From: Emiliania huxleyi CCMP1516
Lineage: Eukaryota
Assembly (NCBI RefSeq): GCF_000372725.1
Contig: NW_005201493.1
Location: forward strand, 138,830-202,829
DNA: 64,000 bases
Direction: 5' to 3'
Part shown: positions 51,345-64,000 of the stretch, in pieces
How positions within the stretch are numbered: position 1 is the first letter of the stretch
Layout of the letters: every line of letters begins with the position of its first letter
Notes under the pieces: model-generated
Seen by the model: the letters and a program-made list of their open reading frames with translations, nothing else
Database searches by the model: none
Told to the model about the DNA's origin: nothing
Program-made: the position numbers and the translations under genes

Positions 51345-51961
51345 ACTTTGGCGGAGTGTGCAGTTAGTAACCTCACATCCAGGGCCGGGGGGAGAGCTTA
51401 ACTAAGAAGCGCACAAGCGGGCCGGATGATCGGCATCGGGCTACGGGCTAGAGAGCCCTGACCCCTAAGGGGGGGTGCGCGTTCGCAGGGAAAGGGCCGT
51501 AAAATAAACACGAGTCTCCGAGGGTTGGTTCTGCGCTTTGGTTGGGTGTCCCCTAGCGGCGGAACGCCCCCTCTACTCGGAGCTAGTAAACACCAGACAC
51601 GAGCATGACGTATACTCTCACCCGACATCGCCACTCAGGGCCCCTCCGCCCGATCTCCCCACCCCCCCATCCGAAAGGGCTCCCCTCTCCTCCCGGTCCT
51701 CCCTCCTGTTCGCTTTCCGATGGTCAGGCTGCGGAGCCCGCCTTCCCCTCTTATACTTCTTCGACCGCGGCTTCGCCGCCGTCTCGCCTTCTCTGTCTGA
51801 TCCCGTTGACTCCGCGGGTGGCGATCCCGTGTCCGACTCCCCGGGCGAGGGCGGCGACGTTGGGTTATATCGCCTCCCCTCCCCGGGGGGTCGGACCGGC
51901 TTTCCCTGGTCGACGAATCGCGCTCGCATCCGCGGCCTCTCTATCGTCTTTCGGCTCGCCC

Positions 51962-52025
<64 letters not shown>

Positions 52026-53040
52026 ATCCTCCGCCGGTTCCTCCCGTCGCCTCTTCTTTGTTCGAATGTTTTTCAATCCATCCTTCACGAAGCCCTCCCA
52101 TGTAGCTAGCGTTCTTGGCGAATGTCTCGAAATGGCCAGCAGGCGCTGTCTGCTCGCGGTCTGTGCGGGCCGCTCGTCCTCCCCGCCCTTCTTTCGTCCT
52201 CCCGTCCCTCCCCTCCACCATGGCCTTCTCGGCACTTCTTTCTCCATCCGCCTCGCCCTGCCTTTTCGTATCGTGCCGTTCGCCCTCCATTCGGTGACCT
52301 CCATGGCTGTCCGCCCCCCTTTGGGTGGCGCTCTCGATACGGTTGCGTCAACCTCGACGTCGCTGTCGCCCTCCCCGTCCCCACCGGCGTCCGTGCCTCG
52401 GTTCGCGTCATCGGTAGCGTCTCCGTTGTTCCCTCGTGCCCCGCCGTCGCCCTCTCTGCTCGGGCCGTTAGCGATTTCGCCCCTCCTGCGTGTCGCCCCT
52501 CCGTCCCCTCCCCTTTCTTCGTCGTCATCGTCGCTGTCGCGAAAGCCCTCCGGTCCCTCGATTCCCTCGCCTATCCCCTCCGCTGCGTCGTCCCAGTTTA
52601 TATCCTCATCCTCTGCGCACGTCGCGTTGGCTTCCTCTCTCCCCCTTTCCTCCCTGCCCCTCTCGCTGTCTGGTGTTAATGGACCCCCTTCCTCTCCCTC
52701 GCCACCGTCACCGTCACCATCCCCGTCGCTCCCGCCCTCCATCCCCGCCGCCCTTTGTCTCACACTCGTCTCTGCCATGTCCGCCGTCGCCGCCGTCCTG
52801 TCTGCTGCGCTCTGTGCTCGTCTAACGCCTCCTGCTAGCTGGGGCACGCTCCCACGCGGCTGGGGGCCGCTCTCCAGCTCGATTAGGGCGTTTTTCGCGC
52901 GATTTTACGGAATTACGGATTGGAGGGGGGTGGCGGCACATAGGGGGAGGGCCACGGAGGGGGAGACGCGCATCTACGAATCAAGTTATTGGCACCGGAA
53001 GCGCTCGCGCCTCGCCGCCGGTCTGCGCCGGTCAGGCTCT
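51345..53040 (-). mobile_element. Repeat element with an acidic/Gly-rich ORF (51618-52847) and an internal (CA)n
   Basis: Middle part repeated at 1-492; terminal part repeated at 49878-49956, where it ends in (CTCCAAGTG)n on the minus strand. Confidence 0.5.
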
Positions 53041-56212: not shown

Positions 56213-56899
56213 GTGGCTGCACCCAGCGCAGCGGCACCCCGGCCTCGGCGGTGCAGCACGACGGCGCAGGCCACGGCCTCTTCGAATAGGCCCGGCGATC
56301 GCTGCGGCCGTGTTGGTCAGCGCGGGGCAAAAGAATTTTACAAGTTAGCGCTCCCACGACACGATTCACGCGATAGCGCACCACACACCTCTCCTTAAAA
56401 TCCCTGTGTGGTGGCGGCGTGCCGTCCTCCCATCCCTCCCTTGGGTTGTCTGTTTTCTTTCTTTCTTTCTTTACGATTCACGCGACAGGCGAGGCGCGGG
56501 CGACGGCTTCCTCACATCCTCAGAAGCCGTCGCCCGCACCACAGGAGCAGTCACACCAAGAAATTGCGGCGCCAACAGGAAGCTCGATTTTTTTGTTTTC
56601 CTTTCCTTTTCGTTTTGCCTTTCCGAGAGAGAGAGATTTTGTTTTGAGAGCGCCTTCGTTGTTAATAGTACAAACCCAACGGTCCTCTGTTTTGTTTGCC
56701 TTTCCGTGCCGATGTGTGTCCTCCTCGAGCCTGGCTGTTCTTCGCCTTTCTATCTACTCTGTGAGTGCGGCCACGCCTTGTCGTGCCAGTATTATAGAAA
56801 GAACAACATGAACATCCAACCCCCAAATCCAAACATAGAATTTTGGATTTTGCTGCCACGCATTCTTTCTGCTGGCGAGGTGCTTCCAGCCTGCTGTGG

Positions 56900-57743
56900 G
56901 AACAGCTGACGCAGTCTCGAGGCATTCTGGGGAATGCTTCTCTGCCGCCGCAGCGGGCGCTGCCGCCGCCGGCGCGCCGCCCAATGCCGCCGACCCTGCC
57001 GCCACCGCCGCCGCGCTCGACGCCACGGACGAGTCGAGCGGCTTGCCCAGCGCCACCGCCCCTGCGGCCGCAGCGGGCGGCGCACCTCCGGCGGCAGCGC
57101 CCGCTGCGGCGGCAGGGGCGGCGGCGTTGGGCGAGCTGCTCTGCACAATGCCATCGGCATTGCCCGCTGCGGCGGCAGGGGCGGCGGCGCTGGGCGGCGT
57201 GCCGCCGGCGGCAACGCCCGCTGCGGCGGCCTCGGCCGACTGTGCGTGGGACGTCGCTGGCGAACGAGCGTTTGCCACGCCGGAGCGACTCGCATGCACA
57301 ATGTGAAAGATGCGGCCCGAGATCTCGGCTTCTGGGATACCAATCCAACCGTACCTTGTGGACCAGTTTCCCGCTTTATAAGCCGACTCTTGGAAGTTTG
57401 CCTTGAGTTGCTGCCTGCATCCGCTGCTGGCGGCGCCGCAGACAGCTCGCCAGTTTGCGTCGGCACTGCAGGAAAAGTTGATCTCTATGAGCGAGTGCCG
57501 ATCGCACTGGTTGCCTGGTTTGCAAAAACGGCAGGTTGCGCGTCCTTCCAAGTAGTTGACGCCGCACCTCGCACACTGAACAGCGCTGGCGGAGGCGACC
57601 GCTCGCCGCTGGAGCACCACTGTCTCTCTCTGTCTTGTCAACGTCATCCACCACAAGCAACTCAGAGGGCTGCACGATGTATCGCGCAACGAGCCGACGC
57701 GCCCGGCTGTGGTAAAACGCAAAAGAAAGGGAAGCGGGGCCAC
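56900..57743 (-). CDS. Hypothetical Cys-rich protein with Ala/Pro-rich tail
   Basis: CARC...CRFC....C..H pattern in a 329-aa ORF divergent from the SANTA gene. Confidence 0.3.
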
Positions 57744-57838
57744 GGACTGGAATTGTGCGATGGAGATGGAAGGCTACCGGGTACCACCGAAGCGAAAGAA
57801 AATTCCTTGTGATCTGACCCTTTGTCGGCGCGAGCGTA

Positions 57839-60358
57839 TATGCTCGGAGAGGCAAAGTATGCTGTCGCTGCGTTGCAGCGCACACTTAAGCGCGATGCTG
57901 ACATTTCACAGGCTTCTCTCGATTGCTTGCGACACAGACTCGACGCAGTGGCGCGTGCACGCGCGCATTTGCCCTCCGCATCGGACAGCGGTGGCGGCGG
58001 CTCGCATTGCGCACATGAAGAGGATGATTGGAGCGGCAACGCTGGCAGCGAGCACGCTGGCAGCCCAAAGGACACCGCCCATCCGAGAGATTGGAGCACA
58101 CTGCCCATCCGAGAGATCAGGAACTGGCATCCAGTGATTGACGAGGTTGACGGAGAGCTGCGGGCGTGCGTCCAAGGAGACTGCGACGGTGTTCTCTGGC
58201 GCAGCGGGCCAATCATCTCGCGGGCAGACGACAACCGGCTCGTGTGCGAGAAGGGTGGTGGGAGAGAGGTTTACATCCTAGTTGGCAGCCTCAATTTCGG
58301 TGCACGCCAACGGCTCGCCTTCCTCAGTCACACCGCTTTATCTCACTTCAGCGATGGCTTTCCCAGCAACTGGAAAGAGCGTCTAATTGTGGGAAACGTC
58401 AACCACCGGCGACCAATACTCTTTCCAGACGGCGAGTCGACCATCTGTCGTGAAGACATAGACGAGCTCGATCACCATCCAAGGGCAAACATACCCGGCG
58501 CCGCAGCTGGCCCCGCCCTGGACCTCCTCCAGCGCGTCCAGGTTGTGCCGTACTCCGTCCTAGGGGAGCAGCTCGTGCGCGGCGAGGGCGTCGTGGACCG
58601 GGCTGGCCCTCCCGACGCCGGCGTTGTGTTTTGCGACCCGGCCGGGCTGCCCTTCATCCAGCGCACCGGCCCTGGCGGCGCGGGCGGCGCGTCGGGAGCC
58701 ATCTACGACTTTCTCGGCATCCGCGACGACGACGCCTTCCCGGAGCCGGTGCGCGAGGCTGTGACGGCGGTCGGCCTCGCAAAGCACCACGCGTACCCAC
58801 AGGAGGAGGGAGGACCCCTCCACTGCATCCACACCGTCGGTCCGAACTTCAACTGCCGGTGCGCCGCCCCTCCCGCCGTCTCGCCGCGCCGCCGGCCGCG
58901 CGGGCCGCGCCTCACCGGCCGCGCGCCGCCCGGCCGCCGCCTCGTCCAGGCGCGATGACGGCAGCCAGCACTCTCGCGAGGAGGCGCAGAAGGAGCTCGC
59001 CGCGGCGTACAAGAACGTGCTCTGCGAGTTCCACGCGGCGGCGAGCGGCGAGGGCGGCCCGACACAGCTGAGGCTGCTGCCCATCTCCGGCGGCATCTTT
59101 GCCGGCCCCTTTGCCGACGAGATTGCGCCGCTGACGATGGACGCGCTCGGCGCGGCGGCGGCGGAGCTGCCTCGAGAGGTGCCTCCAGAGGCGGGGAACA
59201 CGAGGAGGGAGCTCCGCGCTAAACCCCCCCCTTCCCGCACAGGTGAGCGCCCATATCCTCGCGCCTGCCAGCCCGCCGCTGCTCCTCTGCGTCTTTCTGC
59301 GCGACGAGCTCGACGCCTTCGAGCGGGCGCACAGGATCGCCACGGGCGAGGAGGCGCCGCTGCCCGACGCGTCCGCATCCACCGAAGCGCCCGCCGAAGC
59401 GGCTGCTGAAGCGCCCGCCGAAGCGGCTGCTGAAGCGCCCGCCGAGGCGCCTGCCGAGGCGCCCGCCGAGGCGCCCGCCGACGCCGCACCGCCCGATGCC
59501 GACGCCGACGCCGCACCGCCCGACGCTGCACCGCCCGATGCCGCTGATGACGACAGTGAGGACCCGTTTGGCTTACATGAATTGTTCGCCGAGCAATCGC
59601 CCGCAGCTGCGCCAGCGCCCGCCGCCGCTCCCGCCCCCGCGGCTCCCGCACCGGCCGCGGCCCCCGCACCGGCGGGCACCGAGGTTGACGATGTCACAGT
59701 GATTCCGGCGGCGGCGCCGGCTCCGCCTGCGGCGATCGAAATCGGCAGCCGCGCGCTCTACCGCAGCCAGGTGGTGACCGTGACGGGAATCCACTGGGAC
59801 GACGAAGGGGACTACTACACCGTCAAGCTCCCGTCGGGCGAGCTGCGCGACGTCGACGGGCCGCTGCACCCGCTTCTCCCCCACCCCGCAGCCCCTGCAC
59901 CCGCGGTGGGAGCGCAGCAACCGGCGCAGCAGCCGCCGCAGCAGCCGCCGCAGCAGCCGCCGGTCGGGGTGGCCCCGTTGCCCTGGCCACCTCCGCCCCC
60001 GCCACCTCCGCCCATGCAACCGCCAACCCGCCGGCGGCCATTTAGCAGCCAGCTTCCGAGTGTGGCTAGGCTGGGGATCTTTGCCTCAAGGGGTCCAGCC
60101 CGCCTCTCAATAGAAGGAGGAGCAGCTGTATCTGGTCCTGCATTGCGCCCGCGGTGCTGCAGCTTTTGCCACATCTCGGATGGGCAGGTGCTGGCTTGCT
60201 CCAAAGATGGCTGCAAGAAGGGTGTTCACCAGGAATGTTACCACACAGCCATGAGCAAGCCACCCTGCCCGCTCCCCAACCCCTCTGCCAAAAAAGCCCG
60301 AAGAAGTGCTCCTCTCTGTGCTACACACCTCGATCAGTTGGTGCCACAAGTGTACTAA
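57839..60358 (+). CDS. SANTA + Macro + Tudor/SH3-like + PHD-finger fusion protein; introns ~58859-58950 and ~59179-59242
   Basis: IRNW...VQG....WRSGPIISR...YILVGSLN...FSDGFPSNW (SANTA); DPAG...GAGGASGAIY, HTVGPNF, LLPISGGIF (Macro); CSFC...LACSKDGCKKGVHQEC...LCATH (PHD). Confidence 0.7.
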
Positions 60359-60469
60359 GGTTTCTATATATGCAAGAGAGTATTCTAAGGCTCAAGTCTC
60401 ACACATCCCTCGTCTTGTACCAAAAAGCAGGAAAGAGACCTAGTGTACGACTAAGAAACAAACACACGA

Positions 60470-63400
60470 GCCTCTCTCCCAGTCCCTCAGGCCTTCTGGC
60501 ATCCCTTTGCGGTGCGCATTCTCAATCTGCTGCAGCGCGGGTTTGCAGTCGCATAGCACTAAGCACCGCCGCGCTTGCGCGTCGCTCGCGCTCGCCATTT
60601 TGCGTAAGTATGCGAGTATCGCGTACATCTCCGCGTCTATCGGCTCCCACATGTTCGGCAGCTTTCCTCCCCACATTCCCGCCCCAAACGCTATCCGTAT
60701 CTCCCCTTCTTCACAGGGTCCGATTCCGTTGGGATCCTTTACCTGTGCGTCTCCCGGGACGCTCTTTCCGAATCGTGTCGGTCCTTCGAACACGCCGTAC
60801 GCCACCCTAGGGTTCGGCACGTACTTTCCATCCTCCGCCCTTTTGTCTTCATGGTCCTTTCCTCCGTCCGTCGCCGCAAAGTGTGTGAACTGGTGTGAGA
60901 CGTGCAGCGCGAGGCATGTCTGCGCTACTTTCACGTTCAAGGCTCGTCCCTTCCCCGACCGCAGCGGCTCGCTGTCTTTTCCCATCTTAATTCGCTTCCC
61001 GTTGCCGTCCGTCAGCTCTCCCCCCGTCTCAAATTCGTCGTATCGGAGCAGGAAGCGCGTTAGGGGGTCCTCCTGTAGCTCCCCTACTCTGATCGCGCTC
61101 GCCCCGTGTCCGTGCCCCACGAACAGCTCGTAGTCTTCTTTCTTCCAGTTTATGTGTCTCTGGGGCGCCCCCTCTGGGAACAACGTCTCATCCGCCCCGA
61201 GGCTCCCCTCCTGTCGCTCCCTCTCCTGTCTCTCCATCATCTTTCTCACCGCGTCCTTCGTGATCTTATTTTGCTCGGGTATCTCCTCCTCCCATGTCGC
61301 GTTGGTATCGAGGCCCGGGGTCCCCTCCAGCTTTATCACTCGATTGTCCCCGTCCTCTCTCGACCCCAGTTGCGTGCCGCTGTCTTGCGCCGGTTTCTTC
61401 CCCCCGAGGTAGAGCGTCCTGGCCTTCCCCTCCACTCGGATGTCCGTCCTGGTTCGCCCTTCTTCGAACGTGTGTTCTGTCATGTTGGGTGCGCTTGTGC
61501 ACACCCCGTTAACCTCCCTGCTGTATTCAATGAATCGATCGAGCACGTCGCTCCACGACGGAGCATTACTCTCTCCATCGCACGTCTCTAGTGCTCTGTC
61601 CGCTTGCGCTGCCTCCGGCCCCGATCTACCTAGTCTTCTGCGGTGTTCTAGCCACTCTCGGAAGGACGCCGCTTGCCGTCTCGCGCCTTGCGCGTGCATT
61701 AGCTCCCGCTCCCATGTGTGGGGCATCTTATCGTGCCACACCCAGCTGTCGCTCTGCTCGCCTTCCCATTCGCAGAGGTACTCCCATCCGTGTTCGTCCT
61801 CCTCCGTGCCTCCCCCGTAGCAGGTCGGCGCCTTCCTTGCCGCCTTCACCTTCCGCACCCTATCGGGCGCCCTCCGTTCCGTCTTCTGTCCGTGTGCGCG
61901 CTCTTCTATGGCCGCCCACTTCCAGTATTGTCGCAGCTGCGCCCACTCTGGTCGCTCCAGCTGCTCCGCCAGCCTCTTGTATTCGCTATGTTCCGTCGTG
62001 TTGTCTTTGAGGCCATAGACTCGCTTCATTTGCGGCCACGTCAACACTTCCCCGGTGCCCCATTCTGACACGTCCGACCATGTCGCTATCCCGTGCTTGG
62101 CTAGGTTACGTGCAAAGTCACACGCGAGGCCTTGGTTATTCCAGCCATGACTCCTTGTCTCAAAGAGGAGCGGGCCCAGTACTCTCTTTCGGCTCTCGGT
62201 CGTTCTCCACGCCTCGGGTCTGAGCGGCCCCTTCGTGCTCTCTTCCCACCCCGCTGTCGTGACCGTCTCCACCCCACACCTCCATTTTGCCTTTAGATAT
62301 GCTTCGATCATTAGTTCGTCCGAGAGCTCCCTTTCCCAGTCCCAGCTCGGCTTCCACTCCAGCGGGTTGTCACTTCGGCATCCCAGCCTCCTCAACGTGT
62401 GCGCTAGGCTGCTCTCCACGGCCACCCTCGCTGGTTCCCCTTCCACCGCGCTGAGGGCCCGGTCCACTTGATCGATCAGCGCCGCCGCTGCGTACGTGTA
62501 CGCGTGTTCCATTCCCATCCCTCCTCTCTCCTTCACATCGTAAATTTGTAGTCGCGGGATTCCTACCGAGTACCCTTTTGCGTTTAGGGCGCTCGCCCTC
62601 ACTTGTTCGATGCTCTGGCAGTNNNNNNNNNNNNNNNNNNNNNNNNNNNNNNNNNNNNNNNNNNNNNNNNNNNNNNNNNNNNNNNNNNNNNNNNNNNNNN
62701 NNNNNNNNNNNNNNNNNNNNNNNNNNNNNNNNNNNNNNNNNNNNNNNNNNNNNNNNNNNNNNNNNNNNNNNNNNNNNNNNNNNNNNNNNNNNNNNNNNNN
62801 NNNNNNNNNNNNNNNNNNNNNNNNNNNNNNNNNNNNNNNNNNNNNNNNNNNNNNNNNNNNNNNNNNNNNNNNNNNNNNNNNNNNNNNNNNNNNNNNNNNN
62901 NNNNNNNNNNNNNNNNNNNNNNNNNNNNNNNNNNNNNNNNNNNNNNNNNNNNNNNNNNNNNNNNNNNNNNNNNNNNNNNNNNNNNNNNNNNNNNNNNNNN
63001 NNNNNNNNNNNNNNNNNNNNNNNNNNNNNNNNNNNNNNNNNNNNNNNNNNNNNNNNNNNNNNNNNNNNNNNNNNNNNNNNNNNNNNNNNNNNNNNNNNNN
63101 NNNNNNNNNNNNNNNNNNNNNNNNNNNNNNNNNNNNNNNNNNNNNNNNNNNNNNNNNNNNNNNNNNNNNNNNNNNNNNNNNNNNNNNNNNNNNNNNNNNN
63201 NNNNNNNNNNNNNNNNNNNNNNNNNNNNNNNNNNNNNNNNNNNNNNNNNNNNNNNNNNNNNNNNNNNNNNGCCCTCGCCGTTTGCCCACCCGGTCCTTAG
63301 CTCCGTTCCGAGGTATTTGTATCTCTCGTCTCCCTTCAGCTGTGGTATCGGCATGCCATCCGGCATCCTCATTTCGTAGCCCTCGACATCCCGCTCTTCG

Positions 63401-63680
63401 TTGTTCTCCCAGTACGTCGCTGACCATGCCGATTTCTTCTTCTTTTTGACCTGGAGGCTGTTGCCACAGATCTTTGTCACTAACCATGCGCACTCTAGCG
63501 CTAGCTGCATCGTGGCTATGTCGTTGCTGAGGAACAGGCCGTCGTCGGCGTACACTAGCTGCGGCACGCTCTCACCCGCCGCTGTGAAATCAAATCCTCT
63601 ACACAGCTTACTGACTGTTCGCTGCATCACGGCCAGCATGAGCTTGCTACGTGCGGGCGAAAGGAGGCACCCTCCACCTC
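60470..63680 (-). mobile_element. Non-LTR retrotransposon (LINE) ORF2 fragment: RT C-terminus, chromodomain-like motif, RNase H; truncated at both ends, gap inside
   Basis: GCLLSP, YADD and YKYLG RT motifs; ATDGG...AEMYAI...LCDCKPAL RNase H; WEYLCEWEG....SW chromo-like motif. Confidence 0.88.
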
Positions 63681-64000
63681 GAGAACGTGCAGCTGTTGTG
63701 TCACCGCGGTTTCTCTCCGCCACGGTATCGTTGCGGATGCCAAGCCGGCTCGCCTCTCGACGAGAGGCCAAGGCCATGGTCCGCCTATCGACGCTCCTAC
63801 TCGCGGCGCTGGCGCTGCCGCAGTCGTCTTTCGCGGCCGATCGCCACTCCGCAGCGCCGCGGCTGACTCGAGGCCGCAGAGGCAGCGCACCCGAGACTTC
63901 GCGCCCGCTGCTGGCGGCGACGACGCCAAAGCCCGTTGGCAGCAGCGTCACCATGACGGTCGTTCAGATTGTCAACAACGTCGCGGGCGCCGGCATCCTG

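Follow-up and report, generated by a model that had tools for sequence, protein, structure and literature searches.

A probably young, strain-variable chimeric gene joining SANTA and macrodomain segments in Emiliania huxleyi

SANTA (PF09133) together with a CENPC-k motif is described as the ancestral state of KNL2/M18BP1, and CENPC-k is absent in beta-KNL2 and in eutherians (available part of PMC9210943). The Emiliania huxleyi gene examined here shares with this family an N-terminal SANTA domain above the Pfam cut-off, 35% identical to that of protein P0061, and differs from it in having no detectable CENPC-k-like motif or SANT domain and in being fused to a recently copied macrodomain. MacroD ADP-ribosylhydrolases carry NAAN before the glycine-rich loop. 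With MacroD-type and alphavirus nsP3-type macrodomains (PF01661 fold), the second part of the gene shares the predicted fold and HxVGP and SxGIF-type motifs that align to solved structures, while its family is divergent and has an invariant DPAG in place of NAAN. NSD-type variant PHD fingers (PF00628, PF23004) show the same C4-H-C2-H ligand pattern as its C-terminal finger and form the nearest Atlas clusters; the finger differs in scoring below the Pfam cut-off, in the 26 residues between its ligands six and seven and in having basic, not acidic, residues before the first cysteine, and histone reading by it is putative.

With respect to gene origin, the closest counterparts are the chimeric proto-genes formed by ectopic recombination near repeats (available parts of PMC2211543 and 10.64898/2026.08.09.743762), the latter source describing "tinkering loci" in which ectopic recombination at repeats yields composite genes. 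These cases share with ours intron-bearing fragments joined at the DNA level, several donors, transposon remnants and a transcribed composite, but they come from Drosophila, whereas ours is a single algal locus. The locus lies on contig NW_005201493.1 of strain CCMP1516, within the 64,000-nucleotide stretch analysed in full (the window; positions count from its first letter), which is rich in GC and in repeats.

SANTA plus macrodomain is a new combination of real domains: our protein searches found no other protein holding both, and no such fusion is mentioned in the titles and abstract openings of the papers listed for KNL2/SANTA and for SANTA with macrodomains. We found no literature on SANTA, Mis18BP1 or M18BP1 in Emiliania or haptophytes, and the strings Mis18, KNL2, Emiliania and haptophyt do not occur in the main text of PMC5579357. 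Our data suggest that this is probably a young, polymorphic chimeric gene that varies between strains, with a barrel-PHD tail that is likely separate and variably attached and probably has no fixed function yet. A gene still being put together is more likely here than a conserved centromere factor.

Gene model, composition and the C-terminal tail

The gene reads as a single frame of 787 codons (787 aa), from an ATG at 57840 to a TAA at 60358, with three exons joined across two GT-AG introns. A preliminary description had set a SANTA-like motif, a macrodomain, a Tudor-like barrel and a PHD-like finger at 57839..60358; all four do lie in one frame, but that frame starts at 57840. Both introns are spliced out at the GT and AG ends given below in two of four sequencing runs (X6 and X16) and are unspliced in X1 and X9. 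The gene and its flanks comprise:

56372..56689, no strand assigned: very high-copy dispersed repeat of ~320 bases upstream of the locus (run depth)
57840..58499, + strand: segment S, the N-terminal 220 codons, of lower GC (phmmer, GC, GC3)
57840-58858, + strand: exon 1 (frame joining)
58110..58382, + strand: SANTA domain, aa about 91-181 (PF09133; alignment with P0060, P0065 and P0061)
58500..59554, + strand: segment M, copied at the genomic level from a standalone macrodomain gene, with the macrodomain at aa 221-446 and an Ala/Pro/Glu linker (blastn, L001:944-2004)
58859-58949, + strand: intron 1, GT-AG, 91 nt (spliced out in X6 and X16; also in the parent L001)
58950-59178, + strand: exon 2 (frame joining)
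59179-59242, + strand: intron 2, GT-AG, 64 nt (spliced out in X6 and X16; also in the parent L001)
59243-60358, + strand: exon 3 (frame joining)
59555..59704, + strand: Ala/Pro-rich spacer (parent identity ends at 59554; joint 59376->59551 in X1, X9 and X2)
59705..59886, + strand: segment T, a predicted small SH3/Tudor/KOW-like beta-barrel, aa about 581-626 (single-sequence model, Foldseek)
60031..60440, + strand: segment P, a CpG-depleted piece that encodes a PHD-like C4-H-C2-H finger at aa 721-778 and contains the stop codon (60358) (CpG o/e, Pfam, Atlas)
60470..63571, - strand: LINE-like ORF, truncated at about 60470 and interrupted by an N gap at 62623-63270 (ORF list; weak RVT_1 match)

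GC content is 56-62% in the SANTA and PHD parts against 69-79% in the intervening exonic parts, and GC3 is 0.58-0.67 there against 0.88-0.90 in the macro and barrel parts, which bears out the earlier impression that the two ends of the gene are GC-poorer than its middle. The shifts in GC, GC3 and CpG coincide with the segment borders. CpG observed/expected is 0.32-0.33 in segment P against a median of 1.10, and only three of 558 scored windows fall under 0.55, all of them in segment P; this piece is the sole CpG-depleted stretch of the 64-kb window and abuts the cut LINE. No second copy of any gene segment was found inside the 64-kb window. A viral origin of the low-GC parts was considered and set aside, as a search of viral_contigs, sensitive to close relatives alone, returned no relative of segment S, the barrel or the PHD piece.

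A single-sequence model of the barrel (59735-59870) has four strands, with pLDDT 81-92 over residues 11-60. Foldseek rows fell among SH3, Tudor and KOW/eIF5A structures without reaching E<=0.001; the best had TM 0.63-0.70 to small SH3/Tudor targets at E 0.09-0.2. The model supports an SH3-like fold class, but the Foldseek rows do not single out "Tudor", the earlier label, over SH3 or KOW; the barrel has no Tudor Pfam match, its Atlas score is under 0.9, and no homologue was found among 1086 candidates of near length. The PHD-like finger has a C4-H-C2-H pattern, so that its last ligand is His and not that of C4HC3, and the Atlas gives 0.90 to PHD/NSD-variant clusters, its own model being of low confidence; its PF00628 score, however, is 19.4 bits, under the cut-off of 24.

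The public 581-aa model of the locus (P0062) omits the barrel and PHD and is spliced onto a downstream transporter fragment; we saw no support for this model, which is probably wrong. Upstream, an overlapping frame (57580-58137, + strand, other frame) encodes two basic clusters resembling nuclear localisation signals, which are probably outside the SANTA-gene transcript because the X6 contig begins at 57828. An ORF of ~297 aa (56754-57647, - strand), whose N-terminal part is rich in Cys and whose tail is rich in Ala, lies head-to-head with the gene, beginning 193 bases from its ATG, and has no Pfam or NCBIfam match. An X6 contig covers 57234-57698 in this region, and a joint in X1 and X9 places 28 bases where the window has 56760-57168.

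The macrodomain segment, its parent and the neighbouring LINE

The macrodomain, placed earlier at ~58620-59160, is present by profile and fold but extends further, from 58500 to about 59330 across all three exons. No Pfam Macro match was obtained with the window's own ORF pieces, and the near-identical spliced proteins P0008 and P0010 remain under the Pfam Macro cut-off (15-17.5 bits vs 22). A profile of 33 macro relatives matches solved macrodomains at E 2.4e-8, and a model of P0012 (pLDDT 82), which is a 61%-identical relative and not the window's own domain, matches macrodomains (118 chains at E<=0.001); these comparisons predict a macro fold for segment M.

This macrodomain belongs to a divergent DPAG-type family (38 relatives in one search, six in another), mostly under the Pfam cut-off, and DPAG is invariant in all 33 aligned relatives. 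Since DPAG sits where MacroD enzymes have NAAN, an equivalence judged from position, hydrolase activity of this type is uncertain; the NCBIfam deacetylase model scores 11 bits against a cut-off of 200. In the alignments of P0001-P0044, members of the family either stand alone or form the C-terminal module of a protein, in several cases following EF-hand regions. Remoter macro relatives are likewise standalone or C-terminal modules of unrelated proteins, none with SANTA. A 405-kb viral contig also carries a DPAG-family macrodomain of 42% identity (L003:2854-4059), between ORFs that by eye are ATPase-like and kinase-like.

The blastn match between the window and L001, a standalone macrodomain gene, is confined to 58500-59554; it starts at parent codon 2, includes both introns and ends 16 codons before the parent stop. 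The standalone proteins P0007, P0008, P0045 and P0046 begin at the parent ATG. Beyond the first 18 bases, window and parent differ at 21 of 707 exonic bases (3%), and among 241 codons there are 18 synonymous and six non-synonymous changes. A separate locus, sharp homology ends and retained introns are what the parent of a DNA-mediated chimeric gene would show, and L001 shows all three. Because both parent introns are retained, a retrocopy is ruled out. The suggestion of a recent chimera in the preliminary description is thereby supported, both by the standalone parent of the macro part and by the sharp ends of the borrowed piece. The first 18 bases of segment M contain four differences from the parent, compared with 3% in the remainder (post hoc p 0.002), and overall identity may therefore understate the age of the fusion.

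A second, 87%-identical copy of the start of the macro gene lies downstream of a Lipase_3 ORF (L002:2230-2689). Conserved motifs are changed in this copy, and the acceptor position of intron 1 no longer has AG; the macro gene has therefore been copied more than once. Homology between the sequence preceding this copy and the window's pre-macro linker is hinted at by tblastn and a short protein resemblance, but the DNA score is at chance (529 of 2000 shuffles).

The chimera had also been proposed to have been assembled next to a LINE, and a LINE-like ORF does adjoin the stop codon on the opposite strand, with a weak RVT_1 match (E 1.9e-4 on 63272-63963) and no RNase H Pfam match; it includes motifs that we take to be RNase H-like. 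This adjacency might be read as LINE-mediated retrotransposition or transduction having made the fusion, but that reading is largely refuted by the retention of both parent introns. Furthermore, a fresh LINE insertion keeps an intact 3' end, unlike this copy, whose ORF is broken off at about 60470. A copying role for the LINE is thus highly improbable, and the element is better described as a neighbour cut by rearrangement. At 60470 the X9 contig continues in unlike, stop-free sequence.

Upstream, the dispersed repeat at 56372-56689 reaches a summed depth hundreds of times that of the locus in X1 and X9, with many loose ends at 56372-56378 and 56685-56689; its ends are sharp, and it is present in RNA-type runs too. 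Elsewhere in the window, an inverted repeat pair (1-492 and 52023-52514; 492 bases, 98% alike) overlaps a LINE-like N-terminal ORF (51618-52904).

Junctions, transcripts and strain variation

Seven of 17 sequencing runs were compared with the locus (X1, X2, X6, X7, X9, X11 and X16), while X12-X15 (small share) and X3, X4, X5, X8, X10 and X17 stayed outside the comparison. Run contigs are simplified assemblies from which minor paths are dropped, and stretches of very high GC may be missing from them. Neither X6 nor X7 has a library record: X6 is taken as RNA because it is spliced, and X7 by inference alone, coming from the same study and having the same size as X6.

The junction between segments S and M at 58500 is bridged by contigs in three of four runs (X1, X6 and X9, from three studies), the exception being X16. 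In X6 a contig of 1102 nt begins at 57828, passes through SANTA and crosses intron 1 in spliced form; a contig spanning two genes is no proof of a single transcript, though here the S-M frame is continuous and the contig must contain the junction words. The SANTA-macro junction is real and lies on a spliced contig. In X16 (RNA), the macro and barrel parts are covered and depth is zero over SANTA and PHD, with the proviso that zero cover in X16 and X11 is no proof of absence; its macro contig has 39 unlike letters ahead of 58500.

Downstream of the macrodomain, the runs diverge. The X7 macro contig has a shorter linker and departs from the window at 59554, the same point as L001, continuing for 344 unlike letters, while X7 depth is zero over most of 59570-59729; from the exit position we infer a parent-type end. 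In the DNA runs X1, X2 and X9, 30 other bases replace 59377-59550 (174 bases) with the frame kept, followed by spacer and barrel, and P0007 and P0047 join a parent-like start to the same replaced linker. At the M-spacer junction, the parent-type and short-linker versions share four bases (59551-59554). The barrel begins at 59705 after unlike sequence in X16 (624 letters of the contig) and in X11 (51 letters). In X6 and X7 the barrel and PHD parts are on separate contigs, identical to the window, and no contig in X6, X7, X11 or X16 joins the macro part to barrel or PHD; a rarer full-length four-domain RNA would be compatible with such simplified contigs. The earlier worry that the domains are transcribed as separate RNAs thus holds for part of the gene: SANTA is genuine and lies with the macrodomain on one spliced contig, but in the RNA-type runs barrel and PHD occur on separate contigs only. 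Four 5'/3' combinations are indicated:

Parent-type at both ends: L001
Parent-type start, barrel-side tail: P0047 (its source, a metagenome assembly, could be chimeric in its own right)
SANTA start, parent-type end: X6 combined with X7
SANTA start, barrel-PHD tail: the window and, judging by its overlapping contigs, probably X1

Alternatively, the window's own arrangement may in part be an assembly or haplotype-switch artefact, in which the 97%-identical macro sequence let S-M with a parent end be merged with a distinct M-barrel-PHD copy. X6 is nearly identical to the window in S, barrel and PHD, but its macro part has the alleles of the parent, all 12 listed differences from the window there being the L001 allele; the window's long-linker junction (59554/59555) is absent from the pieces listed for the seven runs, and the barrel and PHD are omitted from the public model as well. 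In X1, however, the window-type macro allele has a depth of 804, like that of SANTA (839), and overlapping contigs lead from the macro part through the barrel into PHD. Between the final S-linked site and the first window-type allele of the macro part lie just 38 identical bases, a short stretch for a switch. We consider an artefact rather unlikely.

The frame open over 787 codons and the listed coding indels of X1 and X2, all multiples of three (-144, +24), could reflect selection. The listed strain differences in S and P are seven non-synonymous to three synonymous, as neutrality predicts (p 0.73), compared with six to 18 for macro versus parent (Fisher p 0.022), a comparison that rests on ten codons among the differences listed and sets strain differences against copy differences, which are unlike kinds. 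These counts point to little constraint on the non-macro parts. Against this stand the frame-preserving indels and the more diverged start of segment M, which is compatible with a fusion of greater age that conversion from the parent has refreshed.

Under our preferred reading of a young chimera, a genomic copy of the standalone macrodomain gene, introns kept, would have been joined behind an older SANTA-coding 5' segment supplying promoter and start codon, and its 3' end would have been joined to fragments of other origin, namely the barrel and the CpG-depleted PHD piece abutting the cut LINE. The joining probably proceeded at the DNA level, through ectopic recombination or the repair of breaks, in a region with repeats on its flanks. 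Ongoing exchange with the parent through the common macro sequence could then give rise to the differing 5'/3' combinations. If translated, the product would tether a predicted ADP-ribose-type binding module to a SANTA interaction domain.

SANTA and the centromere question

The SANTA-like motif was borne out, PF09133 scoring 31.9 bits (E 1.8e-7) against a curated Pfam cut-off of 21. A phmmer search with segment S against 1.84 billion representatives gave three matches, the gene itself (P0059) and two SANTA proteins (31% and 35%), and no relative of between 35% and 98% identity among those representatives. P0059 is a version of the locus broken inside SANTA. Since the SANTA motifs are kept at 31-35% identity to anything else, segment S has evidently been under protein-level constraint for a long time. 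The window's SANTA is 35% identical to that of P0061, a nematode SANTA protein, and 32% to those of P0060 and P0065. In the metagenome proteins P0060, P0064 and P0065, SANTA follows an AP2-like region; the SANTA match is above the cut-off and the AP2 match is weak. Because SANTA is fused to an AP2-like region in P0060 and P0065, SANTA alone is no marker of KNL2.

The preliminary description offered, as one of two possibilities, a lineage-specific centromere factor coupling ADP-ribose to CENP-A deposition, and proposed a check for CENPC-k. That reading has the SANTA match as its sole support. Three CENPC-k patterns match P0061, the control, and none matches the window; the CENPC-k motif of P0061 itself scores 25 on the window, a score reached in 244 of 1000 shuffles. 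A CENPC-k consensus was not found in the available part of PMC11879092. Pfam returned no SANT or Myb family, an animal KNL2 trait, at E<=1 on the three ORF pieces, and the searches gave no protein of another lineage with the same architecture, the six longer-protein matches being macro only. Since the gene has no detectable CENPC-k-like motif and no SANT, and its SANTA is similarly distant from P0061 and P0065, we do not file it as KNL2; it may still act like a SANTA-tethered factor.

A functional, lineage-specific KNL2/M18BP1-like centromere factor, in which a macrodomain that binds ADP-ribose was added to SANTA, along with tails resembling chromatin readers in some strains, would be consistent with several observations. 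The SANTA match is above its cut-off, and its end motifs are close to those in the available part of PMC9210943, where beta-KNL2 reaches centromeres without CENPC-k. The S-M contig is spliced in X6, the junction occurs in organisms A and B, and the indels keep the frame. The CENPC-k-like motif found in P0061 but not in the window argues against such a factor, as do the missing SANT match, the X16 run without SANTA cover, the broken SANTA of P0059, the AP2-like fusions and the want of a relative of the same architecture, and we regard it as improbable. We are equally doubtful that the transcribed SANTA-macro fusion is a working KNL2-like factor bringing ADP-ribose sensing to centromeric chromatin, with strains segregating its tails and SANTA behaving as a mobile module.

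SANTA is an unsafe marker for KNL2 in these algae. Were it to function at centromeres, the fusion would tie CENP-A loading to ADP-ribose signalling. As a chimera, which is the reading we favour, the locus would clearly exemplify a gene in the course of being born, here in a marine alga, with one donor known, its borders defined to the base and alternative ends between strains.
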